Source: an uncultured Solirubrobacterales bacterium (GTDB lineage: Bacteria; Actinomycetota; Thermoleophilia; Solirubrobacterales; 70-9). Taken from it: a DNA stretch of 64,000 nucleotides. Below the pieces are notes generated by a model. That model saw only the letters and a list, made by a program, of their open reading frames with translations. It made no database searches and had not been told where the DNA came from. The stretch spans positions 82,710-146,709 of the forward strand of contig CAVSYR010000004.1 of assembly GCA_963732225.1 (NCBI GenBank), written 5' to 3'. The translations under genes were made by a program, and so were the position numbers. Within the stretch, counting starts at the first letter, position 1. Each line of letters starts with the position of its first letter. Shown in pieces: positions 1,788 to 24,987 of the stretch.

Positions 1788-4700
1788 TCATCGATGCCCT
1801 GCCCGGTGATGGCCGCGCTTGCCGCAACGGCGGTGGTGCCTACCCCTGCGCTTGCATCTTTTCGGCGTGATGGCCGGCGGATTGCCCGGCCCGCGGAAGG
1901 TGGAGGTCCCCGGGGGCGCTTCCTCGGGGGTGCCGTTCGGGGTTCCCTGGCAGACCTCGAGCGGACACGGCTTGGGCTTGGGCGGGAAAGCGATGCCGCC
2001 GCCGATGCGCGCATCATAGAGGCGGGCGTAGGCGTCGGGGGCGTCTTCGGTGTACTGGGCGGGGGCGCTGAAGAAGAGGTCGCGGCCCGAGGGGCTGATG
2101 CCGGCGACCTCGGGGGCGCCAGCGCCATTGGAGAAGGCGGTCCATTGGGTGAGGCCGTCGGTGACGAGGAGCAACCGCCCATCACGCCACTCGTAGACAT
2201 CGGTGCCGGCGAGTGGGTCCTTGCCAGGCCCGGGCGTGTTCTGGTCGGCGGGAAGCAGCGGGGTAGGCGTCGTAAAGGCAACATCACCCTGATCGGTGAT
2301 TACAGTGATGTTGCGAGCGCCACGATTTGTGCTGCCGGGGAACGTGGCACGCGGCGTAGTGCCAGGCTCGGGGCAAGAGATGCAGACCAGGGAGCGATGG
2401 CGGTCGTCATAGCGGTAGGACTGTGTGGCGCCGCCGTTTACCTTGCCGCCCTGCGGATTGAGGAGCGGACTGGCGGAGCGGAAGGTGAGGACAGCGCCGT
2501 CGGGGGTCAGATCGGCGGGTTCACCCAGGCTCCCGATAGCGAAACCCGATCCGACGTAGGCGAGGGCGCTGGTGGCGACATCCACCCGGTAGATACCCCT
2601 GGTCGCTGCACCCGGGAGCAGCGGCTTGGCACTTTCGAAATAGACGCGGGAACCGTCATCTGAGACACGGATTTCGAGATTCGGTTCTTGGGTGACCACC
2701 ACGTCGACGTCGAATCCCGAAAGCACGCAGGTCACGCATTCGAGGGTTTGGTCGGAGGTGTCATAACGATAGACGTCTCCGTCGGGACCATTTCCGGTTC
2801 CCGAGCTGCAAGCAGCAGGATTTCGGTCGGCGGGATCGAGACGGGTCTGCGTCCAGAAAAAGGCGGCGCCGGGGGTTGACTTGATGAAGCCGGCGCTGCA
2901 CTGGGGCCCGGAGATCGGCGGCCCTGAGATGAGCTTCGATTCTTCGGCCTCGAGGTCACGCGCGTAGAGCCCGGTGGGCCCGGTGCAGTTGTTCGCGCGA
3001 CTGTTGAAGTAGAGAAACTTCCCGTCGGCCGACAGGGAGTGGGCCTGGGCCCTCTCAGCGAAGGCCTCGTAATCCCCTCCGCCGTGTCGAACCTTCACCC
3101 CGCAACTCGCCGGTTCGCCGCCGGGAAGGAGGCTGAGGAGATGGGGTGGTGAGGCGCTGATGTCATAGAGGTTTGGGAGGCTCGCGGCGGTGGGATAGGC
3201 AGGATCGACGACCCCGTTATCCTCGAATCCACCGATCACCGTTCGCGCGTCATCAGAGGCAAGCAGGGCGGGTTGGGAGGGGTCCAAGTTAAGTGCCGCG
3301 GCACTCCCCATAGGGAACTGCGCGAGCGGCGTAGGCGTGCGGCCGGGCCCAAGGCGCCAGATGGTCCCTTTCGTGTTGCCATCGAGTTGGTCGCCGTTAA
3401 AGGCGAGGACCGTCGAAAGCGAGGGATCCGAGAGGGGCGTCAGCCAGGTAAGCCCGGTCAACTGGTCACGCACCGGAGTGATGAGTTCGGTCTGCCAACC
3501 AGATTCGGGGTGCTCGCCGGGGGGCCGCTGGGCGAAGTAGAGGCCCCAGAAATTCCCGGCGTTGGAGAGGGGGGTGCCGCCGGAGACGCGATAGATGGCT
3601 CGGTCGCCGTCGTCGGAGAGGCCGAGGGTGCCGCCGACGAGGATGGGATTGCCGCCGGATTCGCCGAGGCTGACCTGCTCGTAGGCGCGGTCGGAGCCAG
3701 GCGGCCCCGAAAACCGCCCATGGCTGAGGGGGGCGTCGGAGGCTCGCGTCGTGAAGGTGACGTCGTTGCCGAGCGCGGCGCCGGCGACGTTGCCGTTGTC
3801 GGCGACGATGCGGTAGTGATAGGTGGTGCCAGGCGCCAGGCCGGTGAGCTTGCGGGCGACAAGAACAGTGTGGCTGAGGTCGCCGCCCTGCCTCTGGGTC
3901 GTCACTTTGAAGTTGGTCGGTAACCCCACATTATTTTTAGGTGGCGTCGCCCCGTCGCCAACGTCGAGCTGGGGCACGTCGGTACCGGCAAGGCTCCCCA
4001 CGAAGGTGACTTGGTAGGCACCCGGCTCGCCGCTGACCTGGACGTTTCCGGAGCCGATCGAAGGGAGGGCTTCGAGGGCCTGCGCCAGTTTTGCGGCGGA
4101 CTCGTCGAAGGACAGGTCGGGAGTGGTCTGGGCGCCAAAGGAGACCCTGAACTGGCCGCTGGCCGCATCGAAGGCGATCAACTGCAGCTCATTGGTGTCT
4201 ATCTGGGTGGGGGAAGTGGCGGTGGCGGTGGCAAAGCCGCTGGCTTCGTATGCGGCAACGGTGACGTATTCGAAGTGGTAGCTCGTCGGCTGGCCCTGAG
4301 GATCGACGCGACCGTTCAACCAGGCGGTGGTCGCGGTCCTTTCGGGGGCGCCGACGGTCTCGACTTCGGCCGGGCCGGTCGTCCTGATCGAGGCCTGGCG
4401 CGACACCGTGCCTTCGAGGTTCGCCGCGGTGAGCAAGTAGCGATAGGTCGTATTGGGAGTCAGGCCATTCAGAACGATGCTGACAGCATGCGGCGATTCG
4501 TCGGTGGGGATCTGGTCAAAGCTCGGATCGCAGGAGACGGTGCCGCCTGAGGACAAATCGGAAAACCCTGCAATCTGGAACGCCCGCTCGGTCACGTACT
4601 GAAGGTGACAGGCGGTAAGGGTCGAGCCTTTCGGATTGACGGACGCATGCACCGTCGCAGTGTCGTTGCCGACGGCGGTGGGCGGCGAGAGGGCTACCCT

Positions 4701-6035
4701 GGGCGGCGGCGGCGGGCCCCCGGCGAAGACCCTGACCTGCTTGGTTGTGTCATCGAGCACATAGATGTAGTGGTTCGTGGCGTCGACGGCGATGCCGAGG
4801 AATTTGGCTGTAGGGAATCCGGTGGCGAATTCGTCGACCAGTTCGCCGCTCAGTTCATATTCGCTGATCTTGCTCTGCCCGCTGCTCCCAGTAACTACGA
4901 ATGCGCGATCGGTGGAGGGGTCGATAGTCAGGCTTGCTCCGAAACCAGGCGCTGGATCCTGGGCGATCATCGAACCCGATTGGTATTCGCTGTCCTTGGT
5001 AAAAGACCACAGCTGGTTTGGCCCGCTGAGATAGAGATTGTCTTCGCTGTCGAATGCGATCTGATTCACCGGATTGGGAAACGGCGCCACGACGCCCTTG
5101 ATGATCGTTGCCGTGCCGGGATCGATCTCGATGAGGTCTGGGGAGCTTCCCGGCGTCAGCCGCGTCGCGAGCCACAGCATCCCCTGGGAGTCGACCGCCA
5201 TGGACCCAACGGAGAGTTCGGTCGCCACCGGGAACCCGGGAAGTTCGGCCCCTGTGGGCGCGAAGCCCCGAATGGAAGGTACAGAGTAGGTCGACTCGTA
5301 GACGTTGCCTGCAGTGCTTTGGCCCGTGCCATCGACAGCGAAGGCTTCGGCGAACAGATACGGAACACTGAGAGGATTGAAACCGGAAAGGACAGGAAAG
5401 GCCGGCGGCACCGCGATTTCGTTGCCGTACACGCCGCGGACACCGGAGTGCTCGGCCCTCCCTGCGACAAAGAGACGGCGCCGGCTCTGGTCGATTCCGA
5501 TCCCTCCATGGTCGCCGCCGGCGGTCAATTCCGGATACTGGCTGGCGGCAGTTCCGTCGGGCCCGAAAACAGCCACCGCTCCGTGGTAGGTGATGAAGCC
5601 CTGATCGGCGCCGAGGATCGTACCGCTGGAGGTGGTCTGGGCGACGAGGCGGAAGTGATATTCCTTGCCAGCGATGAGGCCGGTGAGATGGGCGCTGAGG
5701 TCGGCGGGAGAGGTGAAGGCGTTGCCCTCGGCGCAGGCGACTTCGCTGCCGTAGGCGAGGGTTTCGCCCCATTCGAATTTGCAGTTGACGATGCCGGGGT
5801 CGGCTTCGGGGTCGAGGTGGCCGTTGAGGGTGGCGCTGGAGCTGCGGACCTTGGTCGCCAGCTGGGTGGAAGCGGTGGAGGCAAGCGCGGCGCCGGGGAC
5901 AAGCGCCGCGCTTGCGAGGAGCAGCGCGAGGGCGGCGAGGGCGAGCGAGCGGGCAGGGGTGCTCATGCCCAAACGGCGGTGGGGGGCCGGTGACCCGTCG
6001 TGGATCGCTCTATCTGTCTGCGCCTCTCGCTTCAC
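1788..6035 (-). CDS. Giant secreted repeat protein (1415 aa) with Fn3-like modules, beta-propeller-like repeats and a Cys/basic C-terminal tail (cassette copy 1)
   Basis: Uninterrupted 4.2-kb ORF. GTG at 6035 is preceded by GAGGAGAA. Signal peptide LALAALALLLASAALVPGAALA. Repeated modules of the type TLNGxxDP...YxFEY/W...YG...L.P.T.YHxR. C-terminal PD40/TolB-like strings (SDDGSRVYFES, TPDGAVLTF, DVYEWRDG). Tail is CPLEVCQGTP...RCKRRGRHHRRCGKRGHHRAGHR. Confidence 0.85.
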   Translation of the reverse strand: MKREAQTDRAIHDGSPAPHRRLGMSTPARSLALAALALLLASAALVPGAALASTASTQLATKVRSSSATLNGHLDPEADPGIVNCKFEWGETLAYGSEVACAEGNAFTSPADLSAHLTGLIAGKEYHFRLVAQTTSSGTILGADQGFITYHGAVAVFGPDGTAASQYPELTAGGDHGGIGIDQSRRRLFVAGRAEHSGVRGVYGNEIAVPPAFPVLSGFNPLSVPYLFAEAFAVDGTGQSTAGNVYESTYSVPSIRGFAPTGAELPGFPVATELSVGSMAVDSQGMLWLATRLTPGSSPDLIEIDPGTATIIKGVVAPFPNPVNQIAFDSEDNLYLSGPNQLWSFTKDSEYQSGSMIAQDPAPGFGASLTIDPSTDRAFVVTGSSGQSKISEYELSGELVDEFATGFPTAKFLGIAVDATNHYIYVLDDTTKQVRVFAGGPPPPPRVALSPPTAVGNDTATVHASVNPKGSTLTACHLQYVTERAFQIAGFSDLSSGGTVSCDPSFDQIPTDESPHAVSIVLNGLTPNTTYRYLLTAANLEGTVSRQASIRTTGPAEVETVGAPERTATTAWLNGRVDPQGQPTSYHFEYVTVAAYEASGFATATATSPTQIDTNELQLIAFDAASGQFRVSFGAQTTPDLSFDESAAKLAQALEALPSIGSGNVQVSGEPGAYQVTFVGSLAGTDVPQLDVGDGATPPKNNVGLPTNFKVTTQRQGGDLSHTVLVARKLTGLAPGTTYHYRIVADNGNVAGAALGNDVTFTTRASDAPLSHGRFSGPPGSDRAYEQVSLGESGGNPILVGGTLGLSDDGDRAIYRVSGGTPLSNAGNFWGLYFAQRPPGEHPESGWQTELITPVRDQLTGLTWLTPLSDPSLSTVLAFNGDQLDGNTKGTIWRLGPGRTPTPLAQFPMGSAAALNLDPSQPALLASDDARTVIGGFEDNGVVDPAYPTAASLPNLYDISASPPHLLSLLPGGEPASCGVKVRHGGGDYEAFAERAQAHSLSADGKFLYFNSRANNCTGPTGLYARDLEAEESKLISGPPISGPQCSAGFIKSTPGAAFFWTQTRLDPADRNPAACSSGTGNGPDGDVYRYDTSDQTLECVTCVLSGFDVDVVVTQEPNLEIRVSDDGSRVYFESAKPLLPGAATRGIYRVDVATSALAYVGSGFAIGSLGEPADLTPDGAVLTFRSASPLLNPQGGKVNGGATQSYRYDDRHRSLVCISCPEPGTTPRATFPGSTNRGARNITVITDQGDVAFTTPTPLLPADQNTPGPGKDPLAGTDVYEWRDGRLLLVTDGLTQWTAFSNGAGAPEVAGISPSGRDLFFSAPAQYTEDAPDAYARLYDARIGGGIAFPPKPKPCPLEVCQGTPNGTPEEAPPGTSTFRGPGNPPAITPKRCKRRGRHHRRCGKRGHHRAGHR

Positions 6036-6133: not shown

Positions 6134-6918
6134 CTAGCCGGTCACCGCCCAGGTTCCGCTGCCGACATGGAAGCCCCCTTCGGCTTCTGAAACCAGGAGG
6201 ATGGCGCCGGAGACGCTCGCCCCGAGTCCGAAAGTGGCCGGGTCCTGGACCTGGACGAGGGTCGCGCCGGCAAGGGCCCCCGCGTAGACGCAGAGGTAGC
6301 CGGGATCGGCCTCGGGGTTGGCGGCACCCGCAGTCCCGGCGTGTTCTTCATTTTCGCAGTGTTCGTTGGTGGGGTCGTTGATGATCGTGTGACTTGCTTC
6401 GGTGATCGGAGCGGCAAGCGGGATGTCGAAGGAGAGCGGAAGACCCGCCGTCACCCCACCGTTGTAGCGCCAGACGCCGGTCTCGGTCGCCTTCGAGGGA
6501 AGGGTGCCTCCCGCGGTCCAAGGTTCGCCTTCGGGACCCGGGGTGCCAGCTTCACCGTTGCAGACGTATTTCTTGGTGGCCGGTTCGCCGGCGACTTCGA
6601 CGCTGGAGCCGCCTTCGCCACAGTTGGCGCCAGGTTCCTCGTTAGCCACCACCACCGACTTGCCGTTGGTGCCGGGGCTGCCGTTTGCACCGGGTGCCCC
6701 GTCTTTGCCGTTGGTGCCGTTAGTACCGGGTCACCAGCAGCCCCAGCCGGCCCAGTCCCCTGGAAGCTCTTCGCGATCGCCTTGACTTCCTTCTTCTGCT
6801 TGCCGTTGAGGCCGGAGGCCGCGATGGCGCTTCCCCCTACGGCGAGGACGATGGCAATAACTCCAAGCACCAAGCCTGCGGTGCCGAAACGGTCTTTAAA
6901 GCGGCGGTAGAGAGACAT
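6134..6918 (-). pseudogene. Membrane-anchored collagen-like (Gly-X-Y) protein with a globular C-terminal domain, cassette copy 1. One frame change lies inside the Gly-X-Y tract.
   Basis: ORF 6451-6918 gives the N-terminus (MSLYRRFKDRFGTAGLVLGVIAIVLAVGGSAIAASGLNGKQKKEVKAIAKSFQGTGPAGAAGDP...). ORF 6134-6655 gives the rest (...GKSVVVANEEPGANCGEGG...GSGTWAVTG*). Together they are collinear with the intact paralog at 20251-21048. One missing base near 6725-6729 (GACCCGGTACT, expected CCCGGGT) would restore GDPGTNGTNGKDGAPGANGSPGTNGKS. AGGAGG lies upstream of the ATG. Confidence 0.8.
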
Positions 6919-7491
6919 CAGTGCTTTTCCTCCTGTGTGTGGGTTACGTCTTCCCCTCCCACGGGGAGGAGAGCTGCGTGGCCCTCGCGCCGCGCGAGGC
7001 GGCTCGAGGGGGACGTGAGTCGAAGGTCTGCGGCGGCGGCGCTCACCCGGAGGAGGAGCACGGCGCCGGGGTCGAGGTCGGGATGCGGCGGGGCGAGCTC
7101 GGGGAGGCGAGAATCGCGAGCTGGCGGCTTGGGGAGGTGTGATGCGAATGCTTCAGAGCCGAGGACGTCGACGCGGCCGGCGAGTTCAGCTCCCCGCCGC
7201 TCGCTGCTCTCGATGACACGCGGGCCGACAAGCCGAACGGCGCCAGCGAACGCAGACGGGGCGAAGCCGGTGAGGCCTGTGCCTGCTGCGCTTTCACTGC
7301 GATCGGTCCTCCCTGGTCCGGTGCCGCTTCGCCGCTGTCCCGATTCGCATCTGCTGCGAATCCCCTGACCGCGGCGGGTTGGCCGTTTTCTTTCCTCCGT
7401 CCGGGGAGCCGATCCGCGTTGCCCTTCCGGGGCGCTGCGGTTGTCCTCCCTGGACGCTGGTAATGAGAACAGATGTCTACCAGAATGTCAA
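6919..7491 (-). promoter_or_regulatory. Long 5' leader plus promoter-like block of cassette copy 1 (candidate structured cis-regulatory RNA)
   Basis: Core 7291-7491 is about nine-tenths identical by eye to 22829-23030 upstream of copy 2. It includes TTGACA (7491-7486, minus strand) and hairpins with conserved stems and variable loops (GAUUCGCA-loop-UGCGAAUC; GCCC-CGGAA-GGGC). A conserved CCTCC-CCGTG-GGAGG hairpin sits just before the RBS. No convincing -10 hexamer could be placed. Confidence 0.5.
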
Positions 7492-7862
7492 GGATCAATT
7501 TGTTGGGGCGATTTGGCCTAGCCGGAGGAGTTGGCTTGTTTAGGCCTTTAGCGGCCTCAAATCCGTGTGCTGCACGGCTATCTATAAGAACGACAGCGAG
7601 CCATAACGGTGCCCATTGCCTTCGACCGCGGGACGGTGAGCGCTCGCCCAGAGCGGTTTGGAGGCTGCTGCGGCGTCCAGGCCACAGTTGCTGTGGATGT
7701 TCGCTATCCGAGAGGGTTTCGGGTCAAAGCACAACCCCGGCAGGCGCAGTTGCGCAGAGCCGCAAGCTCCTGGTCTAGCTCGTCACCTACGCAGACACTG
7801 CCCACCGATGCGGCGGCCGGATCGGGCAGGGTCGAAGCGATGATGCAATGGCGCCCGATCGG

Positions 7863-13262: not shown

Positions 13263-16104
13263 TCAGGGTCGTGCCGTACGGTCCTGGCGGCGCTTGTGCT
13301 TGCAGCCCGTCGGCTTCAGTGGCGCCCGATAGTTCGAGACCTTGCCGTTGTGGCCTTTGAGCTTGACCGTGGCGAGGTGCTTGCCCTTGCAGATGTTGGT
13401 GCGAGTTTTCGAGCAGGCCCTTCGCGGCTCCGTCGAAGACGAAATCGGCGGAGGTGACCGGGGCGTCGGGGACGACTTCGAAGGTGTTGCGGATGCCGCC
13501 GCCCTTGACCGAGTCGACGCGGCCGACGAGGGCGACGTTGATCTCTTGGTGGTGGAGGGCGGCGACCAGGTCGGGGAGCTTGTGTTCGGAGGAGCGCAGG
13601 TAGATCGGGCCTTCGAGCGGCCCTTCGAGGATCGGCGTGGTGGCCGAGACGTGGCCGTAGACCGAGGCGGCCGGGCACTTTTCGCCGGGGACCGCGCCTT
13701 CGCGGAACTGCACCCGGGTGCAGACGGTGCCGATGTGGGCGTTGTCGAGGAACTCGGAGCGAGGGCAGGGCGACCTGGGCGAAGGCGACGCCGGCTTCGC
13801 CGAAGCCATTCATCGCCAGATGGGCGCTGAGGCTCGGGTTGCCGCCGCGCTTGGTCGAGCCCTTGAGGCGTCAAGGTGAGCTTGGGCTTGAAGGGCAGGG
13901 CGGCGCAGTCGGCGGCCTGGAAGCGGGTCGAGACGACGAGCGGGTTGTCGTCGGCGCCGAGACGAAGTCAAGGCCCGAGCCGAGCACCGTGGAGGCGGTC
14001 GAGGTCGGTTCGCAGCTGGTCGGGTTGAAGGTGAATTCGGGGCGGTCGGTGTAGGCGCGGATGTCGCGCAGGTGGATCGGGATGCCCTTGATGATGTGGG
14101 GGATCGGGTCCGAGCCGGTCGAGTCGAGGAAGACTTCGCCGGTTTCGGGGTTGACGTCGATCGCCAAGCGGACGACGACGGTGCCGATGTCGAAGGGGCC
14201 GACCACGCCGGCGGTGATCGCGACGAGGCGAGACCGGGTGACCGTGGTAGGGGCCGGCGAGGTAGATCTTGCCGGGGGCGTAGGCGAGCGATGGCCCGAC
14301 GCCGGCGCCGACGAGGGTGCGGCCGACCTGGGAGGCCGCCGGGCAGCTGGGGCTGTCGAGCTCTTCCTGGCCGCCGTGCGGTCCGGTCCTCGCCGTTGGC
14401 CGGCGGCGATCGCCGCATCGGAGCAGAAGGGGATGCCGGCGAGCTTGCCGAGCAGGCCCGGGGGCAGCTTGATCGAGAAGTGGGTGATCTCCTGTTCGGA
14501 GTCGGTGCGGGTGAGGCGGACGTTGAAGGGGCGAGAAGCGCCCGGCGGCGTTTGTTGAGGGTGCCGGCGTCGAGGTGCGGGTGGAAGGGCGGCAGGCCGC
14601 CGCTCGGGCAGGGGCCGGCGTCGGGGCCGGAGATGATCTGGAAGGCGGAGGTGGTGGTGATCGGCGGGCCGCCCGACCACGGGGTGAGCTCGGCGCTGGC
14701 GGTGTAGGTGCCGCAGCCGGGCGGGCTGCCAGCGGTGATCGGGCGCCCTCGCGGAAGTGGAGGCGGAAGTGGCAGAAGGGGAGCTGCGGCAGGTCGTCGG
14801 CGATGGTGGTGAGCTGGCCGGTCACCGGGTCGGGTTCGACCTTGAGCGCCTGCTTGATGACGATGCCCAGGGTCGGGTTCTTGATCACGACGTAGAGGGC
14901 GAGGAGGCTGTCCGAGTTGGTTTTCGTAGGGCTTGGCGATGAAGAGCGAGCCGTCGACGTTTTCTTCGAGCAGCGGGGTTTCGACTTCGACGGTGCCGAT
15001 CTTGGAGGCGTCGGGGCAGCCGGCGCCGGGGGCCGAGAAGGCGCTCTCGCGGGCGAGGTCGGCTTCGCTGCAGACCTCGAGGCCTTCGGCCAGGGAGGGG
15101 TTGGTGGAGAAGCCCTCGGGCAGGGTGACGACGGCCTTCTTGATGTCGGAGTCGGCGATCCCGGTGGGGTTGGTGAGGCCCTCGTCGTCGACGTCGAGGG
15201 AGAAGTCGAGGCCGGTGGGGCTGTTGGCGGCCTTGGTGGTGGGTTGGGCGGAGATCGTCGGCCCGAAGCCGAGTTTGGCGCAACCGCTGAAGCCGAGCGG
15301 GGTGACGGCGACCCCGGACGCTTCGGCGCCGGTGTTCCAGGCGCGGGCGGCAAATTCGCTGGTCAGGGCGCCGGTGCAGCTGCGGGGCGCGGTGAGGAAC
15401 GGCTGTTTGAGCTGCTGCACGGGGCAGGTTGAGCCGTGCAGTTCCGCGCAGAGGCCGCGCTCGGCGTCGTGGGCGGGGTCGGAGGGATTGCCCCAAATCG
15501 TGATTCGGGAGCCGAAGAACTGGGTGATCTGAGAGGTGGCGTCGACGCTGGCGAGGAGCCGATATGGCGGATCGGGGCTGACGCGTACGTCGATGATGAC
15601 CGGGACGGCGACGACGAAGAAGCCGAGTCGGGCGGCGACCCCGGGAGGCGGGGGGAGGTTGTAGACGGCGGAGGTGTTGGCGTATCCCAGCGTGGGAGGC
15701 TCGGGTACGAAGTTGAGGTCGACGGCGGCGATGCCAACCGCGGTGGGGTCGGGGCAAGACCTTTCTCTTTCCTGGGATACCGTGGCGATGAAGGTAGCGG
15801 TAGGGCAGCGCGGAACCGCCGTCGGATCGCCGACCAAGCCCGGTGGCGAGGTTGCGGTGAGGTCCCTGAGTTCGCCTTCGGGAAGGAAATTGCCCGGTTT
15901 GGCTTCGAAGGTATTGAAGTTCACCGTGGTGGCGAAGCCGAAGGGATGGGAGCCGGCTTGCATGAGGGGATTGCCGTCGGGGCCCGGGAAGCTGACTTCG
16001 AGGCTCTTGAAGCCGAAGCTGGCCTGCGCCGCGCCCGAAAAACAGGTGGCGCCGGCCAGCGCGAGGAGAATTATCATGGTCAAAGCTGAGATGAATCGCC
16101 TCAT
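13263..16104 (-). pseudogene. Third-family secreted protein, cassette copy 2. Intact for its first ~1.2 kb, then broken by about ten frame changes.
   Basis: ATG at 16104 overlaps the giant-gene stop (ATGA 16101-16104). It begins MRRFISALTMIILLALAGATCFSGAAQASFGFKSLEVSF... and stays in one frame to about 14925 (...LFIAKPYENQ). After that, recognisable segments alternate among all three frames: SLLALYVVIKNPTLGIVIKQALKVEPDPVTGQL; ITAGSPPGCGTYTASAELTPWSGGPPITTTSAFQI; FNVRLTRTDSEQEITHFSIKLPPGLLGKLAGIPFC; EELDSPSCPAASQVGRTLVGAGVGPSLAYAPGKIYLAGPY; LVAITAGVVGPFDIGTVVVRLAIDVNPETGEVFLDS...; ...NICKGKHLATVKLKGHNGKVSNYRAPLKPTGCKHKRRQDRTARP*. Confidence 0.75.
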
Positions 16105-19100
16105 CGGGCGGCCCTCCGCTTGTCGTTTGCTCGCCGATGGCGATTGTGGGCGGCTCGCCGGTGCCGCTTGGCGACGCAGCGGCTCTTGCGGCGGACCTTG
16201 CCTTTGGGGCAGCTGGTCCTGGGGCCTTCGAGGACGTTGCCGGCCCCTTCGAAGCTGGCCGAGGCCGGGGTGGGGTCGTTGGGTGGGGCGGGGACGCCCT
16301 GGCAGGCTTCGCCTTCGCAGGCCGCGGGCGGGCTGGGTTCGGGTGGGAAGCCGCCGTCGATGCGGGCGTCGTAGATGTCGATCAGGCCGTCGTCTTGGGG
16401 CAGGAGGCTCGACTGGGTCTTGAAGAAGACGTCTGAGCCGTCGGTGGAGGCGTCGACGAAGGTGGAGTCGGCGGGGCTGCGGCCGGAGGAGATCAGGCTG
16501 AGGCAGCCGGCGGCGGCAGGGCTGTAGAGGTCCGCGCCCTTTTCGTGGCACTGCGCGGCGCCCGCGGCGCGCTGCCACTCGTAAACGTCGAGGGCGCCGT
16601 TGGTGTCGCGGAGGATCAGCGGGTCGGCGCTTTCGAAGAAGAGGCGGCGACCGTCGGTCGAGAGGACACTGGTGGGGTGGGTGCCGTTGAGCCAGCCGGG
16701 GATGGTGGCGGCGGTCCAATCAGTGACACTGCACGCTTTAGATGAGCAGAAGTTCTGCCCCATCGGGCGGGCGCCGTTGGGGTTACATGAAAGGCAGCGC
16801 AGCTTCGCTTCGCCGGCGTCATAGAGGTAGAGCTCGGTGTCGGGTTGGCCGCTGGCGGCGTCGTGGTTATCGTATTCGGTGAGCTGGGCGCGGGAGGCGA
16901 AGGCGAGGTCGGCGCCGCCGGGGCTGACGCGAGCGGAGAGGTGGCTCGGCGACTGATAGTTGATCAGGTCGTCGGGGGCCGTGGTGGCGATGAAGGCAAG
17001 GCCGCCACCCGGGCCGGCCTGGTGGAGGTAGAGGTTGGGCCGGCCGGCGACCGGAGAGCGGTGTTCGGCATTTTCGCCGGTGAGAGCTTCCGTGGAGAGG
17101 AAGTAGACGCGGGTGGTGTCCTCGGAGGCGCCGAGCAGGTTGAGCGCCTTGGGGGCGATCAGGGTGCTGGCGCCGGCTTCGCCGGCGAGGGCTCTGGCGA
17201 GGTCGAATTCGTAGAGGGCTTCCGTTCCGGCGCCTTCGGAGGCGGTGTAGATCGCGGTCGAGCCGTCGGGGGCGGCGGTGCGGAAGTGGGCGGCTGCCGA
17301 TACCGCGAGGGTGCAGGCGCGGGCCGCTTCGGTGCATTTGCCGGCGAGGACTTTGCTCTGCCCCTGGCCGGCGTTGACGCGAACGTAGAGGATGCCGGAG
17401 CCGGAGCCGTTGGCCCCTTCGGTCGGCCCTTCGGTCCAGTAGACGCGGGAGCCATCGGTGGAGAGGGCGTGGTAGACGGTATCTGCGCGTTGAGAGGCGG
17501 ATTGCGTGCCCTGGGTGACACCCTCCCAGCATTTACTGACGCTCGGGGTGCCGTCGGGGAGGATGCAGAGGAGGCGGAGTTTGCCGCCGTTGGAGAGGTA
17601 GAGCTGTCTGGTGCAGCCTTCCTGCCCCTGTTCCACTTTGGTGCAGGGCACCGCGTCGGGGGTGAGGGCGCCGTTGGCGTAGAAGACGGCGTGGGTGCCA
17701 TCGGGGGTGAGGTCCTGGGGGATCGGGAAGAACCATTCGGGATCGACTTTTTTGGGGACGGCGGTGGTGATCGCTTCATAGCTGCCCGCATCGGGGCCGC
17801 AGTTGTCGCGCCGGTAGATGTTGGGGTAGCCGGGAAGCGCTTTGGGGGCGAGCAGCGGTTCGGTCTCGGTCAGGACCAGGGCCGAGCAGAGGTCGCTGGA
17901 GAAGCGCCTGTACTGATCTTCGACCGCATAGTGGACGTTGTAGAAGGTGGGGCCTTCGCGGGGGGTGGAGATCGATTCGCTCTGCCAGCCCGCCGCGGCG
18001 CGGTGGGCGAGGTACTGGGCGGTGAAGGGAGCCGATTCGGGATCGGCGAAGGCGCGGTAGGAGGAGTAGGTGAGGCTCTGCCCGTCGGCAGCCGCCTGCT
18101 CGAGGCCGGTGCTGTCGGACAGGACGGAGATGATGTCGCCGCCGCCCTTCTGGACCGGGGAGACCATCTCGTAGGCACGGCAGTCGGGCAGGGCGGCGGA
18201 GGCGGCGGTGCGGAGGGCCTGGTTGGGGCAGGCGGTGAAGGCTTCGGCGGGGGGCGAGTAGGTGGAGATCGTGTGCTCGGAGCTGAATTTCGTGACGAAA
18301 GGGTCGGAGGCGAGGAGGCGGTAGTGGTAGGTGGTGCCCGGGGATAGGGAGCTGAGCTGGGCGGCGGCGGCGCTGGGGGCTTCGCCGGAGCCGAAGTCGA
18401 TCGGTTCCGCAGGGGCGGGAATGTCGCCGGCGTGGTCGAAGCCATGGCCGGGGCCGGAGGCCTGCAGGTCTGCCTGGTAGGTCGCGTCGTCGACGTATTG
18501 GAAGTAGCCGGTGGCGGGGATCGTCAGCGGGTTCACTTCGGCGTGGAGAGTGGCGCTGTCGGTGTTGACCGCGGTGGCGAAGGTTGCGTCGATTTCAAGC
18601 GGCGCCTTGGTCGTGAAGGGAGCTCCCTCGGGGCCGGTGGAGATATGGCCTTCGGAGTCTTCGGCGATGGCGCGGTAGTGGTAGGCGGTTTCGGGTGCGA
18701 GGCATTCGTTGCCCGGTTCTTTCAGTTCGGTGGCGGGGAGGGGGCAGCCGATCAGGTTGCTGAGAGCGTGGGTTTCGAAGTCCGAGCCCGCCGCGGCGCC
18801 GGTGGTTTCGCGGGTCGCGGGGCTGGAGAAGCCCTCGCCGTTGTGTTCGAAGTCGGCCGCGTCGACGTACTGAAAGCGGTAGACGGTGGCCTTGCCCTCT
18901 GGGTTGACCTGGGTGTTGACGGTGGCCTTGGTGTTGCCGAGCGCGGTGGCCTTGGTGATGCCGGGATAGCCGAGGACAAGGGGGCCTGGCGGGGGGATCG
19001 GGATATGGAGGATGGAGCCGAGCTTGCTTCCGTCGGTGCTCTCGTAGCTTTCAAGCGCAAAGACGTCGCCGCCGGGATCGGAGTAGGGGGCGAGGGAGCG

Positions 19101-20132
19101 GCGGAGATCGCGGGGGGAGGCGGGGTAGAAGACGCGCAGCTCGGTGCCGCTGGAGTCGTACTCGGCGATTCCCCGGAAGCCACCGAAGAAGTCGACGACG
19201 AAGAGGTGGTCGGCAGAATCGGTGGCGATCGCCGCGAGGTTCGAAGAGGGGTTGAGGGTGTTGAGCAGGGTGCCGCTCGGGCCATACTTGCGGATGGCGC
19301 CGGTCGAGTCGTCGGTGGCGACGTAGGTGTCGCCGAGGGAGTCGACGGCGATCCCGCTTGGCGAGCCACGGTTGCCGAGGCTCTCTTCGAACTGGCCAAT
19401 CAGAGCGCCGGCGGGGGTGAACTTCTGGACCCGGTTTTCGGTGATCTCGGACGTGTCGTAGCCGACGAGGTGGCTGTCGGCCACGTAGACGACACCGGCG
19501 GGACCGATCGCGAGTCGCGAGTGTTCGTCGAACTGCCCGGCGGCGAAGCCTCGGCTGCCCGCCCGGCAAACGTCGCTGGGCGGCCCGGTACCGGTGCAGA
19601 CGTTCGGGTTGCCCGAGGTCCCGGTGTTGACTCCCTTGCCGAAGGCGAGCAGGAAGGCGCCGGCGGGGGTGAACTTCTGCACCCGGCTATTGGCTTCTTC
19701 GAGGATGTAGACATCGTGGAAGGAGGGGCTGGCGGGGTCGTTGTCGACGGCGACATCCTGGGGTTCCTTCAGCTGGCCGGCGCCGGCGCCCGGAAGGCCC
19801 TGGAAGCAGGTCGCGGTGCAGGTCTGCAGGGCGGCGGTGGTGCCGTCAGCGACGCCCCAGCCGAAGGCGCGCAGGAAGGTGCCGTCGGCGGCGAAGACGT
19901 CGACCCTGTTATTGGCGGTGTCGGCGACGTAGAGGCTGCCGTCGGAGCGATCGACGGCGATCGCGTGGGGTTCATGGGTCTGGCCAGCGCCGGCGCCGGG
20001 GGTGGTGGGAAAGAGGAGGTCGGCGTGGGCGCGCGGCGCAGTGGCGAGCAGGGCGAGCGCGGCGAGCGCGAGGAGGACCCAGCGGGAGCGGGCGTGACCG
20101 GCGCGCGTGGGTACGTCCATCCTCTGTGTCAC
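16101..20132 (-). CDS. Giant secreted NHL-repeat / Fn3-like / beta-propeller protein (1343 aa) with a Cys/basic C-terminal tail (cassette copy 2)
   Basis: Uninterrupted 4-kb ORF. GTG start is preceded by GAGGAGAG. Signal peptide RWVLLALAALALLATAPRAHA. NHL-type repeats (SLYVADTANNRVDVFAADGTFLRAFG; VYILEEANSRVQKFTPAGAFLLAFG; ENRVQKFTPAGALIGQF). Fn3-like modules (NPEGKATVYRFQYV...; TTYHYRL). PD40-like strings (STDGSRVYW, STDGRRLFFES, DVYEW). Tail is CEGEACQGVP...SCPKGKVRRKSRCVAKRHRRAAHNRHRRANDKRRAAR. Confidence 0.9.
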   Translation of the reverse strand: MTQRMDVPTRAGHARSRWVLLALAALALLATAPRAHADLLFPTTPGAGAGQTHEPHAIAVDRSDGSLYVADTANNRVDVFAADGTFLRAFGWGVADGTTAALQTCTATCFQGLPGAGAGQLKEPQDVAVDNDPASPSFHDVYILEEANSRVQKFTPAGAFLLAFGKGVNTGTSGNPNVCTGTGPPSDVCRAGSRGFAAGQFDEHSRLAIGPAGVVYVADSHLVGYDTSEITENRVQKFTPAGALIGQFEESLGNRGSPSGIAVDSLGDTYVATDDSTGAIRKYGPSGTLLNTLNPSSNLAAIATDSADHLFVVDFFGGFRGIAEYDSSGTELRVFYPASPRDLRRSLAPYSDPGGDVFALESYESTDGSKLGSILHIPIPPPGPLVLGYPGITKATALGNTKATVNTQVNPEGKATVYRFQYVDAADFEHNGEGFSSPATRETTGAAAGSDFETHALSNLIGCPLPATELKEPGNECLAPETAYHYRAIAEDSEGHISTGPEGAPFTTKAPLEIDATFATAVNTDSATLHAEVNPLTIPATGYFQYVDDATYQADLQASGPGHGFDHAGDIPAPAEPIDFGSGEAPSAAAAQLSSLSPGTTYHYRLLASDPFVTKFSSEHTISTYSPPAEAFTACPNQALRTAASAALPDCRAYEMVSPVQKGGGDIISVLSDSTGLEQAAADGQSLTYSSYRAFADPESAPFTAQYLAHRAAAGWQSESISTPREGPTFYNVHYAVEDQYRRFSSDLCSALVLTETEPLLAPKALPGYPNIYRRDNCGPDAGSYEAITTAVPKKVDPEWFFPIPQDLTPDGTHAVFYANGALTPDAVPCTKVEQGQEGCTRQLYLSNGGKLRLLCILPDGTPSVSKCWEGVTQGTQSASQRADTVYHALSTDGSRVYWTEGPTEGANGSGSGILYVRVNAGQGQSKVLAGKCTEAARACTLAVSAAAHFRTAAPDGSTAIYTASEGAGTEALYEFDLARALAGEAGASTLIAPKALNLLGASEDTTRVYFLSTEALTGENAEHRSPVAGRPNLYLHQAGPGGGLAFIATTAPDDLINYQSPSHLSARVSPGGADLAFASRAQLTEYDNHDAASGQPDTELYLYDAGEAKLRCLSCNPNGARPMGQNFCSSKACSVTDWTAATIPGWLNGTHPTSVLSTDGRRLFFESADPLILRDTNGALDVYEWQRAAGAAQCHEKGADLYSPAAAGCLSLISSGRSPADSTFVDASTDGSDVFFKTQSSLLPQDDGLIDIYDARIDGGFPPEPSPPAACEGEACQGVPAPPNDPTPASASFEGAGNVLEGPRTSCPKGKVRRKSRCVAKRHRRAAHNRHRRANDKRRAAR

Positions 20133-20250: not shown

Positions 20251-21048
20251 CTAACCGGTCACCGCCCAGGTGCCCTTGAGAGTCGCTTCCGGGAGGGCGA
20301 GGATGTAGAGGACCGCGCCGGCGGTGGAGGCACCGGCGTCATTGGCGGCCGTTCCGGCCTTGAAAACACTGTTGACTTCGCCCCCTGCTCCCCCCCCGCT
20401 GATCGCGGCGGCATAGATGCAGAGGTGGCCGGATTTGGCTTTCGGATTCGTCGACTTGCCGGGACAGTCGGATCCCGCAGCGCCTTCGTAGTCGACCGGG
20501 TTGACGTGGACATTGGCCGCGGGAATGTCCGCCGCCAGCGCAATCGGGAAGGAGATCGGCAGGTAGAATTCAAAAGCGGGTGCTTCCACGGCCGGTCCGA
20601 GCGCCCAGGCCCCGGTCTCGGTCGAACCCGAGGGAAGGGTGCCCCCGGCGGCCCAAGGCGAGCCGGCTTCGCCGTTGCAGACTTCGACGCCGGAGCCGGC
20701 GTCTTCGACCTTGACTTCGGCGCCGCCACGCTGTTCGCATTCGGGTTCGCCGGTTTCGATTTCTTCCACCGCGACCGATTTGCCGTCGGCGCCGTCGTCA
20801 CCCTTTTGACCGGGCAGGCCCTGGGCTCCGTCCTTGCCGTTGGTACCGTTCGTGCCGTTGGTGCCAGCGGCGCCGGGCGCACCGGGCTTGCCGGCAAAGC
20901 TCTTGGCGATCGCCTTGACTTCCTTCTTCTGGGTGCCGTTGAGCTTCGCACCGGCAGCAAAGGCAGTCCCTCCCAGCGCTGCAATCAGTGCGATCACCCC
21001 CAGGACGACACCTGCGGTACCAAAGCGCTCGTGGAATCGTTTGTACAT
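20251..21048 (-). CDS. Membrane-anchored collagen-like (Gly-X-Y) protein with a globular C-terminal domain (cassette copy 2, intact)
   Basis: GAGGAG lies 8 nt upstream of the ATG. N-terminal anchor FGTAGVVLGVIALIAALGGTAFAAG. Gly-X-Y run GKPGAPGAAGTNGTNGTNGKDGAQGLPGQKGDDGADG. The ~170-aa non-collagen C-terminal domain ends GTWAVTG*. The overall layout resembles BclA-type collagen-like surface proteins (architecture only). Confidence 0.9.
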   Translation of the reverse strand: MYKRFHERFGTAGVVLGVIALIAALGGTAFAAGAKLNGTQKKEVKAIAKSFAGKPGAPGAAGTNGTNGTNGKDGAQGLPGQKGDDGADGKSVAVEEIETGEPECEQRGGAEVKVEDAGSGVEVCNGEAGSPWAAGGTLPSGSTETGAWALGPAVEAPAFEFYLPISFPIALAADIPAANVHVNPVDYEGAAGSDCPGKSTNPKAKSGHLCIYAAAISGGGAGGEVNSVFKAGTAANDAGASTAGAVLYILALPEATLKGTWAVTG

Positions 21049-23444: not shown

Positions 23445-23837
23445 TTAGATCGCAAAAACCTCGAGGCCCGGCACCCGTTCGAACTCGGCAGCGTTGGCGG
23501 TGGCGAGCGCCAATCCCGTCGCCAGCGCGGTGGCCGCGATCCAGAGGTCGTGGGCGCCGATCACCCTGCCTTCGACCTCGAGGGCGGCCCAGATGCGAGC
23601 GTGGGTGCGGGCGACGGCGGCGGTTATCGGCAGCGCCTCAATCGCGCCGAGCAGGTGCTCGACGAAGGCCTGGCGACGGATGCGGACCGACTCCGGCGCC
23701 GCGCGGTGGACACCGTGCAGGAGCTCGGAGACTGTGATCGCGCTGATCGCCCGCTGCTGCTCGCCGATCAGGCGCTCGAGCCCCGGCCCGCGGCGCTCGG
23801 CGTTGACCAGGACCGAGGTATCGATCAGGACGGCCAC
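23445..23837 (-). CDS. vapC: PIN-domain ribonuclease toxin VapC
   Basis: GTG at 23837. The protein reads VAVLIDTSVLVNAERRG...ISAITVSELLHGV...HLLGAIEALPITAAVARTHARIWAALEVEGRVIGAHDLWIAATALATGLALATANAAEFERVPGLEV. This shows the typical PIN acidic residues and VapC layout. It overlaps the upstream antitoxin by 13 nt. Confidence 0.85.
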   Translation of the reverse strand: MAVLIDTSVLVNAERRGPGLERLIGEQQRAISAITVSELLHGVHRAAPESVRIRRQAFVEHLLGAIEALPITAAVARTHARIWAALEVEGRVIGAHDLWIAATALATGLALATANAAEFERVPGLEVFAI

Positions 23838-24085
23838 GCGCCGTCCGGGGCCGGGATCCCGCGGCGAGCGCTTTCCAGCTCGCGCTCGAAGTCCTCGTCG
23901 ACCGCCGGCGCGCTCGCCATCAACTCCCCCCAACGCGAAGCGCTGAGCAGGGCGCCGGGGCGAGCGGGCCGCAGCTCGGCGACCGCCACCCCGTTGCGGA
24001 CCACCTCCACCTCCTCGCCGCGGCCGACCCTGTTGAGCACGGCGGAGAAGCTGCGCGAGACCTCGGTGGCGGAGAGGCGGACCAT
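23825..24085 (-). CDS. vapB: Type II antitoxin (Phd/YefM-like) paired with VapC
   Basis: MVRLSATEVSRSFSAVLNRVGRGEEVEVVRNGVAVAELRPA... is a typical prevent-host-death-type N-terminus. It sits immediately upstream of, and overlapping, the PIN gene. ATG at 24085 is preferred over the track's TTG at 24091. Confidence 0.75.
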   Translation of the reverse strand: MVRLSATEVSRSFSAVLNRVGRGEEVEVVRNGVAVAELRPARPGALLSASRWGELMASAPAVDEDFERELESARRGIPAPDGAWPS

Positions 24086-24096
24086 GCGCAAAGGAT

Positions 24097-24112
24097 ATCA
24101 GATAAATCTGAT
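24097..24112. promoter_or_regulatory. AT-rich palindrome just upstream of vapB (candidate antitoxin operator)
   Basis: ATCAGAT-AA-ATCTGAT is a 7-bp inverted repeat in an otherwise GC-rich context, 12 nt upstream of the vapB ATG. Confidence 0.4.
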
Positions 24113-24151
24113 TTCGCCGAGGGTGAGCAGGGCACCCCCGTCCCTCGCAAC

Positions 24152-24225
24152 GTCGGCGAGAGACGCAATGGGGCCGCGCCGCAGTCACCCGCCAGGGCGG
24201 CCGCAGGCCGAGGCCGAGCGCAGCG
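24152..24225. repeat. Direct repeat R2 flanking the vapBC module
   Basis: See R1 (23197-23268). Confidence 0.8.
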
Positions 24226-24943: not shown

Positions 24944-24961
24944 AGGGTGTGCGCACACCCT
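24944..24961. promoter_or_regulatory. Perfect 18-bp palindrome upstream of the TetR gene (candidate operator)
   Basis: AGGGTGTGC/GCACACCCT lies 27 nt upstream of the ATG at 24988. Confidence 0.5.
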
Positions 24962-24987
24962 GGGGAAACGCGGCCGAGTTGCGCTCG

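Follow-up and report, generated by a model that had tools for sequence, protein, structure and literature searches.

Several kinds of described RNA element come close to the leader reported here. Leaders repressed by CsrA/RsmA, among them the Bacillus subtilis hag 5′ UTR and that of Escherichia coli glgC, carry several GGA sites, some in predicted hairpin loops, as does the present leader. The AGGGA motif fits A(N)GGA/ARGGA, and one site overlaps the Shine-Dalgarno sequence (ACAAGGAG or CAGGGAGGA). The likeness extends to a Shine-Dalgarno sequence that is otherwise accessible and to controlled genes that encode an exported surface structure. The present leader differs in that its two-domain fold covaries and includes an internal loop of invariant sequence, and CsrA binding to it is putative. 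Typically, c-di-GMP riboswitches act on genes for surface proteins and adhesins. The c-di-GMP-I/II classes (RF01051, RF01786) resemble the leader in being structured 5′ elements with covarying helices and conserved unpaired purines, positioned 5′ of genes for adhesin-like or collagen-like surface proteins. The leader differs from them in being a simple rod with neither junction nor pseudoknot and with no Rfam match at permissive thresholds. Its Shine-Dalgarno sequence is also not sequestered in the predicted folds, and its relatives retain the motif without the fold.

Ribosomal-protein leaders and the PyrR site share with it an irregular hairpin whose conserved purine-rich internal loop lies beside the ribosome-binding site. 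The sequence GUCCAGGGAGGAC in the leader is superficially like the PyrR loop CCAGAGAGG. The gene context of the PyrR binding site is unrelated, however, the resemblance is lost in the homologues, and no Rfam PyrR match is obtained. The HK022 put and Bacillus EAR antitermination RNAs are likewise promoter-proximal, with two stem-loops heading a very long operon; the leader here has no sequence or covariance-model similarity to them and is joined directly to a Shine-Dalgarno sequence and start codon. Soils contain abundant Thermoleophilia (Solirubrobacterales), whose genetics is almost unstudied. To our knowledge, no cis-regulatory RNA specific to this group has been described, and we know of no Csr regulon described in deep-branching actinobacteria such as this host.

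The DNA analyzed, referred to as the window, is a stretch of 64,000 nucleotides from an uncultured Solirubrobacterales bacterium. It contains two blocks of approximately 200 nt on the minus strand, denoted A and B. The best explanation for each block is a promoter-proximal leader at the 5′ end of a long operon in a Solirubrobacterales-type actinobacterium. We are highly confident that the block represents a real, conserved, cis-acting family of structured leaders. The family is undescribed; its members lie ahead of the initial gene in operons for cell-surface proteins of soil Solirubrobacterales, and their repeated GGA/AGGGA motifs probably serve to control translation.

Two leader blocks and their parts

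Block A (7291-7491) and block B (22829-23030) were compared by global alignment, and 190 of the 205 columns are identical (92.7%); the preliminary description had judged them by eye to be about nine-tenths identical. The similarity starts sharply at cTTGACA, located at 7491-7486 in A and 23030-23025 in B, and the 200 nt upstream of the blocks are unrelated (53% identity). Identity is 71.8% over the next 280 nt downstream and approximately 65% across 537 nt of the main gene, and for the giant genes the BLASTN alignment is almost nil. The non-coding block is thus better conserved than the genes that it precedes, as had been proposed. The 5′ end of the block is DNA-level promoter sequence and its 3′ end consists of the Shine-Dalgarno sequence and a GTG that begins the downstream ORF (7297-7295 in A, 22835-22833 in B); the RNA proper is therefore taken as approximately 7461-7295 in A and 23000-22833 in B. 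Protein coding through the block was rejected because three single-nucleotide indels within it separate the two copies. The parts of the element are as follows.

7462..7493, minus strand: promoter-like element of copy A, with cTTGACA at 7491-7486, a 17-nt spacer with terminal TGT, and a −10-like TCTCAT at 7468-7463; sharp similarity boundary
7399..7455, minus strand: 5′ domain (P1) of copy A, a long irregular hairpin GUCC.GGGAG ... CUCCC.GGAC around CCGC/GCGG and GCCC-CGGAA-GGGC in MFE folds
7453-7443, minus strand: first CCAGGGAGGAC of copy A
7385..7398, minus strand: purine-rich linker GGAGGAAAGAAAAC of copy A, predicted to be mostly single-stranded
7321..7384, minus strand: 3′ domain of copy A, with P2 (GGCC/GGC(A)C), P3 (CGCCGC/GCGGCG), P3b (GUC/GAC), and P4, from folds and covariation
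7362-7342, minus strand: P4 hairpin GAUUCGCA-GCAGA-UGCGAAUC of copy A, from folds
7295..7320, minus strand: ribosome-binding region of copy A, with the second CCAGGGAGGAC (7316-7306) as the Shine-Dalgarno sequence in a weak AGGGA-loop hairpin, and GTG at 7297-7295
6919..7297, minus strand: leader-proximal ORF region of copy A, homologous to small genes called in loci L120/L121 and to ORF2 of L038
23001..23032, minus strand: promoter-like element of copy B, with TTGACA at 23030-23025 and TCTCAT at 23007-23002
22937..22993, minus strand: 5′ domain (P1) of copy B, including the first CCAGGGAGGAC at 22991-22981
22859..22921, minus strand: 3′ domain (P2-P4) of copy B, with the P4 hairpin at 22899-22879 (loop ACUGG), from folds and a score of 93.7 bits against model R2 (see below)
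22833..22858, minus strand: Shine-Dalgarno region of copy B, with the second CCAGGGAGGAC at 22854-22844 and GTG at 22835-22833

The sequence TTGACA-N17-TCTCAT is promoter-like and would serve as a promoter with a non-canonical −10 element. The same element, as TTGACA-N14-TGT-TC(T/C)(C/T/A)AT, heads all 11 of the homologous leaders described below. The element is not called by a sigma-70 scan because its −10 lacks an A at position 2, and the strict promoter pattern TTGACATT-N11-CTGTTCTCATTA gave 0 matches in the metagenome scan. Copies A and B are identical at 29 of the 32 positions of this element. The TTGACA noted in the preliminary description is present, but the 30-nt invariant stretch said to follow it is not: 9 identical positions are followed by 2 mismatches (AC/GT) and then by 14 identical positions. 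The two copies of CCAGGGAGGAC, which had been placed about 140 nt apart, are separated by 137 nt from start to start in each block. The bare 11-mer does not exceed chance (4 seen vs 2.5 expected with ≤1 mismatch); significance attaches to the whole block. A search of genome contigs for CCAGGGAGGAC-N(111-141)-CCAGGGAGGAC returned 33 matches in unrelated phyla; BLASTN shows no further similarity among them, and they were set aside as chance.

Folding recovered the GCCC-CGGAA-GGGC hairpin inside CCGC...GCGG, and also the 8-bp stem GAUUCGCA/UGCGAAUC with loops GCAGA and ACUGG in the two copies, both of which had been read from the letters beforehand. The internal loop in the 3′ domain of copy A has AGGG on one side and GG opposite. 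The first 13 nt of P1 in copy A (7455-7443) can alternatively form a small hairpin, GUCC-AGGGA-GGAC. The linker is conserved as a GGAGAGAAAA-like sequence in all members and is predicted to be unpaired. The 13 differing columns between A and B all fall outside the 76 paired columns, with a chance probability of ∼3e-4 if the differences are assumed to be independent.

Homologous leaders and the conserved fold

Homologous leaders were collected with nhmmer and a regular-expression search. Nine are clear, each on an independent soil metagenome contig (L035, L060, L071, L072, L080, L088, L095, L097, and L100), and two more are borderline. All are sense-oriented and lie 5′ of the same cassette type. 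A covariance model, R2, was built from 7 external leaders alone, with no window sequences, and it scores the window copies at 93.7 bits (copy B) and 90.9 bits, with matches confined to the minus strand. Model R1, derived from just the two window copies, found no members beyond those from nhmmer.

Alignment A9 comprises 13 related sequences, mostly aligned by the structure-fitted model, and on this basis 27 of the 32 modeled pairs have compensatory changes. In the same alignment 89.4% of cells are paired; shuffles give 64.8% and slid controls 27-51%, and the observed value is reached by 0 of 500 shuffles. Helices 1 and 2, in the 5′ domain (P1), are 87% and 96% paired with a compensatory change at every pair, and helices 3-5 of the 3′ domain covary. 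The external-only alignment A8 gives 88.3% paired cells vs 71.3%. An alignment made with MAFFT only, which is not structure-fitted, points in the same direction (74% paired vs 68%, slid controls 27-53%). RNAalifold applied to the first MAFFT alignment of the full leaders detected almost nothing, a result attributed to that alignment being structurally wrong. Single-sequence folds yield the same nested 3′ domain with AGGGRA unpaired in 10 of 11 cases. The sequence CAGGG is invariant across the 13-sequence alignment, and the internal loop reads CAGGG(G/A)A.

The strand is not fixed by wobble pairs (19 G-U vs 17 A-C cells), and the single-sequence folding energy is slightly better for the plus strand (z of −4.4 vs −2.7). 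The minus strand was assigned because the Shine-Dalgarno sequence, start codon, and promoter-like element lie on it and the model matches the sense strand only.

The preliminary description had named two findings that would speak against its proposal: an absence of homologous, covarying leaders elsewhere, or an identity that covers the flanking DNA uniformly. Homologues with covariation exist, and the identity is not that of a uniform gene-conversion tract. A recent duplication or local gene-conversion tract between the cassettes, which would make the similarity non-functional, is consistent with the recombination that occurs at this locus, as judged from the paralogous cassettes 15.5 kb apart and the module debris in cassette B. 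This explanation is largely refuted and hardly credible. The identity runs from 53% through 92.7%, 71.8%, and 65% to unalignable and so does not extend evenly into the flanks; the boundary falls exactly at the −35 element; the homologues that covary come from other organisms; and the differences between A and B all avoid paired positions.

Searches against Rfam 15 gave tRNA only for the whole window at gathering thresholds. At E up to 10, the region 6800-7700 gave two chance-level matches, neither of which overlaps the structured RNA at 7461-7295, and at E up to 1 the leaders of eight homologous loci were without any match. The earlier statement that the block could not be placed in a known class agrees with this result. 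Resemblances to the PyrR site, the glycine riboswitch, the c-di-GMP-I riboswitch, and guanidine-III were considered, and none is backed by Rfam. A riboswitch-like leader, a protein-binding leader, and a small RNA had all been suggested at the outset. A cis-acting leader is favored, and a free-standing small RNA is unlikely because the RNA passes straight into a Shine-Dalgarno sequence and start codon, those of the main gene in four loci, and no terminator-like site was found on the sense (minus) strand.

GGA motifs and a proposed control of translation

The density of GGGA is 12.8 per kb in the leaders of 75 family loci vs 4.4 per kb further upstream, and that of TCCC in the same leaders is 5.9 per kb. 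Hairpins with an AGGGA pentaloop on differing stems were found 10 times in 48.6 kb of sense leaders, compared with 2 in 146 kb of downstream sequence and 1 antisense. Loops bearing GGGA account for 5.2% of candidate hairpins in the leaders vs ∼1% in controls. Each leader has 4-5 GGGA/AGGA sites, one of which overlaps the Shine-Dalgarno sequence, an arrangement expected of a CsrA leader. The window copies have CCAGGGAGGA as the Shine-Dalgarno sequence and relatives have ACAAGGAG or (A)CAAGGAG; this region fits the CsrA core ACARGGA. The SELEX consensus for CsrA is RUACARGGAUGU, with GGA favored in hairpin loops and with overlap of the Shine-Dalgarno sequence (PMC4347634). The first motif of the window is in a loop only in the alternative fold, and the conserved CAGGGRA is in an internal, not apical, loop. 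The Shine-Dalgarno sequence is predicted to be 0.5-0.9 unpaired in 9 of 11 leaders (∼0.6 in copy A) and is therefore not self-sequestered.

Transcription would start a few bases after TTGACA-N17-TC(N)(N)AT. The resulting RNA of approximately 165 nt would have two irregular hairpin domains and a purine-rich single-stranded joint and would end where the first cistron begins, at its Shine-Dalgarno sequence and start codon. CA(R)GGA/AGGGA motifs would be displayed in the 5′ hairpin loop, in the internal loop CAGGG(G/A)A, in ACGGGAC before the ribosome-binding site, and in the Shine-Dalgarno sequence. A GGA-recognizing protein, putatively of the CsrA/Rsm type, would occupy these motifs and would shut out the ribosome by forming a bridge between a structured site and the one at the Shine-Dalgarno sequence. 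Translation of the first cistron, and of the next cistron via stop/start overlaps (TGATG, TAGATG), would be repressed until the protein is titrated away. Translational control through the leader by a CsrA-type GGA-binding protein is plausible, and we propose it tentatively as the leading explanation. The csrA gene is annotated in seven Solirubrobacter genomes (PMC10722151). A TBLASTN search of the 64-kb window and the fetched loci found no csrA, which counts against this proposal. Known CsrA targets, moreover, rarely keep a conserved, covarying fold with an invariant internal loop, features that are more typical of aptamers and specific protein-binding operators. The GGGA-rich motifs also partly resemble Shine-Dalgarno sequences and for that reason could serve as ribosome standby sites or in pairing with a C-rich small RNA.

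Alternatively, the element might be a translational riboswitch: its aptamer would be the 3′ domain (P2-P3-P4 and the conserved internal loop), its ligand a metabolite or a second messenger such as a cyclic dinucleotide, and it would gate the adjacent Shine-Dalgarno sequence. Covarying stems around invariant unpaired purines are what an aptamer should have, the 3′ domain directly adjoins the Shine-Dalgarno sequence, and the surface-protein genes downstream also speak for such a switch. No expression platform is seen, however: there is no sense-strand terminator, the Shine-Dalgarno sequence is unsequestered in the predicted ground state, and a CUCC-type anti-Shine-Dalgarno, although present, is not conserved in position as judged by eye. 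The simple rod with one internal loop, the null results from Rfam, and the restriction of the element to one cassette type, not to metabolic or transport genes, also weigh against a riboswitch. Related cassettes retain AGGGA/GGGA motifs without the fold, which an aptamer would not tolerate. A riboswitch appears distinctly unlikely, and a protein-binding leader is favored over it. A composite device, in which the 3′ domain with its CAGGG(G/A)A...GG loop would be a sensor of a new class (a riboswitch, or the operator of an RNA-binding factor specific to the cassettes) serving a widespread family of variable, uncharacterized surface-protein cassettes of soil Solirubrobacterales and joined with a hypermutable upstream ORF whose frame decides coupling, would act as an RNA sensor and phase-variation switch; we consider it equally improbable.

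The leader might also work with no dedicated effector. Its two stable hairpins would then protect a very long mRNA from RNase attack at its 5′ end, and the linker GGAGAGAAAA and the exposed Shine-Dalgarno sequence would be a standby site or enhancer for an abundant surface protein. The mostly unpaired Shine-Dalgarno sequence, the conserved, unpaired, and Shine-Dalgarno-like linker, the start of the 5′ hairpin near the putative transcription start, and the length of the operons (∼15 kb for cassette B) are all compatible with this constitutive role. A stabilizer needs neither an invariant CAGGG...GG loop nor AGGGA loops that recur on different stems in divergent leaders, however, and 93% identity between paralogues with all changes unpaired suggests a constraint tighter than stability alone; the constitutive role is accordingly judged unlikely. 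A further alternative is a target platform on which a C-rich sRNA, with UCCC or C-rich loops as in the 6C/RsaE type, would pair with the GGGA repeats and the Shine-Dalgarno sequence. C-rich-loop sRNAs are widespread in Actinobacteria and several G-rich motifs are exposed here, one at the Shine-Dalgarno sequence, but none of these sRNAs was found in the window, where Rfam at gathering thresholds gives tRNA only, and such pairing explains the conserved helices and invariant CAGGG loop no better than protein binding does. It is considered very unlikely. Slightly less probable again is a processive antitermination RNA of the put/EAR kind, which would modify RNA polymerase for read-through of a very long, partly untranslated operon. 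Two hairpin domains immediately 3′ of the promoter-like element, operons of 10-15 kb with giant genes, and ∼1.5 kb of poorly coding DNA ahead of the main gene in cassette B would suit such an RNA. Against it, spacing is constant in four loci between the 3′ domain and the adjoining Shine-Dalgarno sequence and start codon of the main gene, an arrangement that indicates a role in translation; in addition, the Rfam antitermination families are without a match, and a Pfam scan of flanking ORFs revealed no NusG paralogue.

Cassettes and the leader-proximal reading frame

The operon products are a collagen-like protein with a membrane anchor, a giant beta-propeller/fn3 protein, and other large proteins. 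Each cassette combines a collagen-like, possibly lectin-headed stalk protein with giant propeller proteins. These surface-protein cassettes form a large family that evolves rapidly, and the leader marks where their expression signals lie. Should the GGA/AGGGA motifs prove to be CsrA sites, the leader would indicate a Csr-type post-transcriptional regulon for surface architecture in a deep-branching actinobacterial lineage. If they are not, it would be a candidate new riboswitch or protein operator. With the covariance model and alignment, such operons can be annotated in metagenomes. A phage origin of the cassette was considered and rejected, as IMG/VR holds no relatives of the cassette protein.

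The start codon of the leader is the ATG of the collagen-like main gene in L071, L072, L060, and L088. It opens the next ORF in L095 and a small upstream ORF in the remaining members. The leader-proximal ORF of copy A has a single frame shift in the window, and the frame ending in TGATG overlaps the main ATG at 6918. Its coding status is uncertain. Third-position substitutions, viewed by eye, favor sense-strand coding in the PDLDP..LLLRV stretch; the GC content by codon position is not gene-like in the window, and no Pfam matches were obtained for this ORF. A protein search with the collagen-like protein returned 1428 homologues. Repeat tracts are present in the upstream ORF, as (TC)19.5 in L035 and as G/C runs in the window.

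The two copies and the cassettes that they head

The block at 7291-7491 (copy A) was aligned on the minus strand with that at 22829-23030 (copy B), and 190 of the 205 columns are identical (92.7%), in agreement with the nine-tenths estimated by eye in the preliminary description. The block is also better kept than the genes that it precedes, as had been proposed: the first large gene shows ~65% identity, and BLASTN finds hardly any alignment between the giant genes. The 5' edge of the similarity is sharp and falls at cTTGACA; before it, 200 nt are unrelated (53% identical), and the 280 nt directly downstream of the block are 71.8% identical. The host DNA is high in G+C (66.6%). The cassettes are listed below.

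Genes headed by the two leaders (minus strand)
Copy A (from 7491): 6918..6134, then 6035..1788
Copy B (from 23030): operon of ~15 kb with 21048..20251, 20132..16101, 16719..13810 and further ORFs
Cassette gene 1: collagen-like protein, membrane-anchored at the N-terminus
Cassette gene 2: protein of 1300-1400 aa with NHL, propeller and fn3 domains
Cassette gene 3: protein of about 950 aa

This gene order recurs across independent contigs, and no cassette relative was found among the IMG/VR viral contigs. The 265-aa gene 3' of copy B (20251-21048, minus) gave 1428 homologue matches in a protein search, and every named one is from Solirubrobacterales or Actinomycetota. Its product carries a membrane helix at the N-terminus, then a collagen-like stalk, and at the C-terminus a beta-sandwich that is modelled confidently (pLDDT above 90). 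The sandwich weakly resembles the trimeric H-type lectins Helix pomatia agglutinin (TM 0.58) and discoidin II, with E above 0.1 for both matches. A lectin-headed fibre anchored in the membrane is a possible reading of this protein. Between the two cassettes, the giant secreted NHL/propeller/fn3 proteins (1788-6035 and 16101-20132, minus) hardly align as DNA. At the C-terminus of each stands a Cys-x-E-x-CQG motif with a strongly basic tail after it, possibly a sorting or anchoring signal that has gone unrecognised.

The elements described earlier within the block were all recovered, one of them with a correction. The motif CCAGGGAGGAC occurs twice in each copy with starts 137 nt apart (~140 had been given), and the GCCC-CGGAA-GGGC hairpin nested in CCGC/GCGG is present, as is the 8-bp stem GAUUCGCA/UGCGAAUC whose loop is GCAGA or ACUGG, depending on the copy. 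TTGACA is also present, and the 30-nt run after it, described as invariant, contains 2-3 mismatches. A protein frame through the block is ruled out by three single-base indels inside it. None of the 13 columns that differ between A and B is among the 76 paired columns of the fold (P ~3e-4), and it is hardly probable at all that neutral duplication or gene conversion explains the similarity.

Homologous leaders and their conserved fold

Related loci were fetched via a neighbouring protein, 3 from encoding contigs and 80 from metagenomes, and were searched using nhmmer seeded with A, B and locus L035, plus a promoter regular expression. Homologous leaders are clear in L035, L060, L071, L072, L080, L088, L095, L097 and L100, and all nine lie on the strand of the gene, 5' of the cassette. 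The shared parts are listed in order.

Shared parts of the leaders, 5' to 3'
1: cTTGACA, N14, TGT, TC(T/C)(C/T/A)AT
2: long irregular 5' hairpin
3: purine-rich linker (GGAGAGAAAA)
4, first half: GGCC, stem, GG(U/C)CAGGG(G/A)A, hairpin of variable sequence
4, second half: (U)CGGG(A/G)C, returning stem, GGCCAC
5: GGGAC(C/A)AAGGAG, then the start codon

In L071, L072, L060 and L088, the collagen-like gene itself uses this start codon, an ATG; in L095 the codon opens the ORF next after that gene; and in the window, L035, L100, L080 and L097 it is a GTG that starts an upstream ORF. The module thus sits before whichever cistron is first and behaves as a 5' UTR. Of the options raised for the block, the cis-acting leader is retained and the free-standing small RNA is dropped. 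No terminator-like site was found on this strand.

The preliminary description could not assign the block to a known RNA class. Rfam 15 likewise gave nothing on it, whether the whole window was searched at gathering thresholds or the block and eight related loci at permissive E-values, and a pattern scan of representative genomes returned chance matches only. The sole Rfam match in the window is a tRNA gene (50165-50238, minus strand, 73.7 bits).

A covariance model from the two window copies (R1) was used to align seven external sequences. In this external-only alignment, 88.3% of cells pair, compared with 71.3% after shuffling and 28-52% with slid partners. A second model (R2), built from those seven sequences alone, picks up the two window copies with 93.7 and 90.9 bits and gives no antisense matches at E up to 5. 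In the alignment of 13 sequences (A9), 89.4% of cells are paired compared with 64.8% in shuffles, both sides change in 27 of 32 pairs, and 0 of 500 shuffles attain any observed measure; the helices thus covary. Further checks made no use of an alignment fitted to the structure. When the window helices were imposed on a pure MAFFT alignment of the 3' domain, 74% of cells paired compared with 68% shuffled (0 of 500) and 27-53% in slid controls. Folded singly, 10 of 11 sequences form the nested P2-P3-P3b-P4 hairpin of the 3' domain and leave AGGG(G/A)A unpaired, and full-length folds reproduce the two-domain layout. Pairing by itself leaves the strand undecided (19 G-U and 17 A-C cells), and the plus strand folds at least equally well on energy alone. 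The minus strand is assigned from the Shine-Dalgarno sequence, start codon, promoter-like element and sense-only model matches. The block is a structured cis-acting leader RNA of a new family, tied to an uncharacterised Solirubrobacterales surface-protein cassette.

Promoter-like element and leader-proximal ORF

TTGACA, a 17-nt spacer and a TG-preceded TC(N)(N)AT look like an extended -10 promoter, which a consensus promoter scan misses because position 2 of the hexamer is not the canonical A. The element could equally be read as ECF-like, GAC-N16-GTTC. Both its promoter function and the start of transcription are putative. The spacer motif TGGTCCG is kept in 8 of 9 external members, which suggests an additional DNA-binding regulator, and it might be an operator for a TetR-type protein. 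At three independent loci, pairs of TetR-family genes adjoin the cassettes, and a PIN-domain ORF is found just 5' of leader B.

TetR-pair/PIN loci
Window: 24883-26178 (plus) and 23445-24188 (minus)
L120: 290-1697
L037: 4445-6570

The ORF opened by the leader GTG, a putative coding sequence, stays in frame up to the main (collagen-like) start in L100, L080, L097 and, from its first, truncated leader, L095; its stop adjoins or overlaps that start codon (..KEEN*ATG or TGATG). In L120 and L121, a small gene of this kind is called by gene finders, and L038 has two coupled small ORFs. The homologous window region needs one frame shift in A and two in B, at G or C runs.

Frame breaks at homopolymers
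Leader-proximal ORF: ~22712-22706 (G7), ~22627 (C6) and ~7200 (G4)
Main gene of cassette A (6918..6134), at a C run: ~6720 (GACCC^GGT)

The breaks reflect errors of the long-read assembly or else genuine hypermutable tracts. The main gene of cassette A has its break at a C run as well, so assembly errors compete seriously with phase variation as an explanation. In L035, a perfect (TC)19.5 repeat (9543-9581) lies inside the leader-GTG ORF, whose stop follows directly; one more TC unit would restore the frame, joining a 163-codon frame that ends TGATG at the main gene. The repeat is a candidate for a phase-variation switch that would set translational coupling by strand slippage.

Two further observations concern this region. 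The 1.5 kb between leader B and the main gene (22560-21049, minus) resembles debris of further cassette modules, with CAGACCTTCGA three times, the pre-gene module GGGGAAGACGCAAC...AGGAG three times, and the ends of two tiny collagen-like ORFs (..GSQHV*, ..GSQRT*) with ATTCTCGCCCCCC after each; the pattern suggests that cassettes have recombined with one another. At 7063-7103, a ~21-nt tandem duplication, ATCCCGA(G/C)CTCGACCCCGGCGC (minus), lies inside the leader-proximal ORF of cassette A, and the stretch is kept as DNA in cassette B, L035 and L038 even where reading frames differ.

Possible mode of action and the GGGA signature

The ribosome-binding site is predicted to be 0.5-0.9 unpaired in 9 of 11 leaders, so the leader alone does not hide it. 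CA(R)GGA/AGGGA sites recur in the leaders; some lie in loops, and one coincides with the Shine-Dalgarno sequence, which is ACAAGGAG in L080, L097, L096 and L121. This arrangement matches the reported preference of CsrA for RUACARGGAUGU, with GGA in hairpin loops and Shine-Dalgarno overlap (PMC4347634), and Solirubrobacter genomes carry annotated csrA (PMC10722151). On these grounds, a platform for CsrA-type translational repression is tentatively favoured, and the best guess for the effector is a GGA-binding protein. Against CsrA-type repression, no csrA was seen in the window and fetched loci, and so strongly conserved a fold is atypical of Csr targets.

A constitutive stability or standby leader is unlikely. 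A riboswitch, one of the options raised in the preliminary description, is less likely again: the fold is a simple rod without an expression platform, the element is associated with a single cassette type, and relatives retain the motif, not the fold. That the leader is the target of a C-rich sRNA is improbable, and processive antitermination ranks below even that.

Of the 75 family loci that have 250 nt or more of sequence upstream, only ~10 carry this exact leader. Weak R2 matches (E 0.01-5) are mostly on the sense strand just 5' of the gene, and the other family leaders, by reading, share a GGGA-type vocabulary. In the 75 loci, GGGA density at -250 to -15 is 12.8 per kb compared with 4.4 per kb farther upstream, and the complement TCCC occurs at 5.9 per kb in those leaders. 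AGGGA pentaloop hairpins with a stem of at least 4 bp number 10 in 48.6 kb of sense leaders, compared with 2 in 146 kb downstream and 1 antisense. No two stems are alike: GUCC/GGAC (window), GUCGACC/GGUCGAC (L120), GACCGC/GCGGUC (L121) and UGCCC/GGGCA (L038). GGGA-containing loops are enriched ~fivefold among candidate hairpins. The two CCAGGGAGGAC copies are instances of the AGGGA motif; in predicted folds, the first is able to form GUCC-AGGGA-GGAC, and the second, which is the Shine-Dalgarno sequence, lies in a weaker AGGGA-loop hairpin.

A second conserved element precedes the main gene: a hairpin, GCCGGC-(N)GGGAA-GCCGGC, then CAAGGAGGAGAAC and a stop codon abutting or overlapping the main ATG. 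It again places a GGGA loop beside a GGA-containing Shine-Dalgarno sequence.

Positions of the GGGAA hairpin element
L080: ~1095-1140
L097: ~2930-2976
L100: ~2950-2998
L075, L083, L085 and L089: just 5' of the main start
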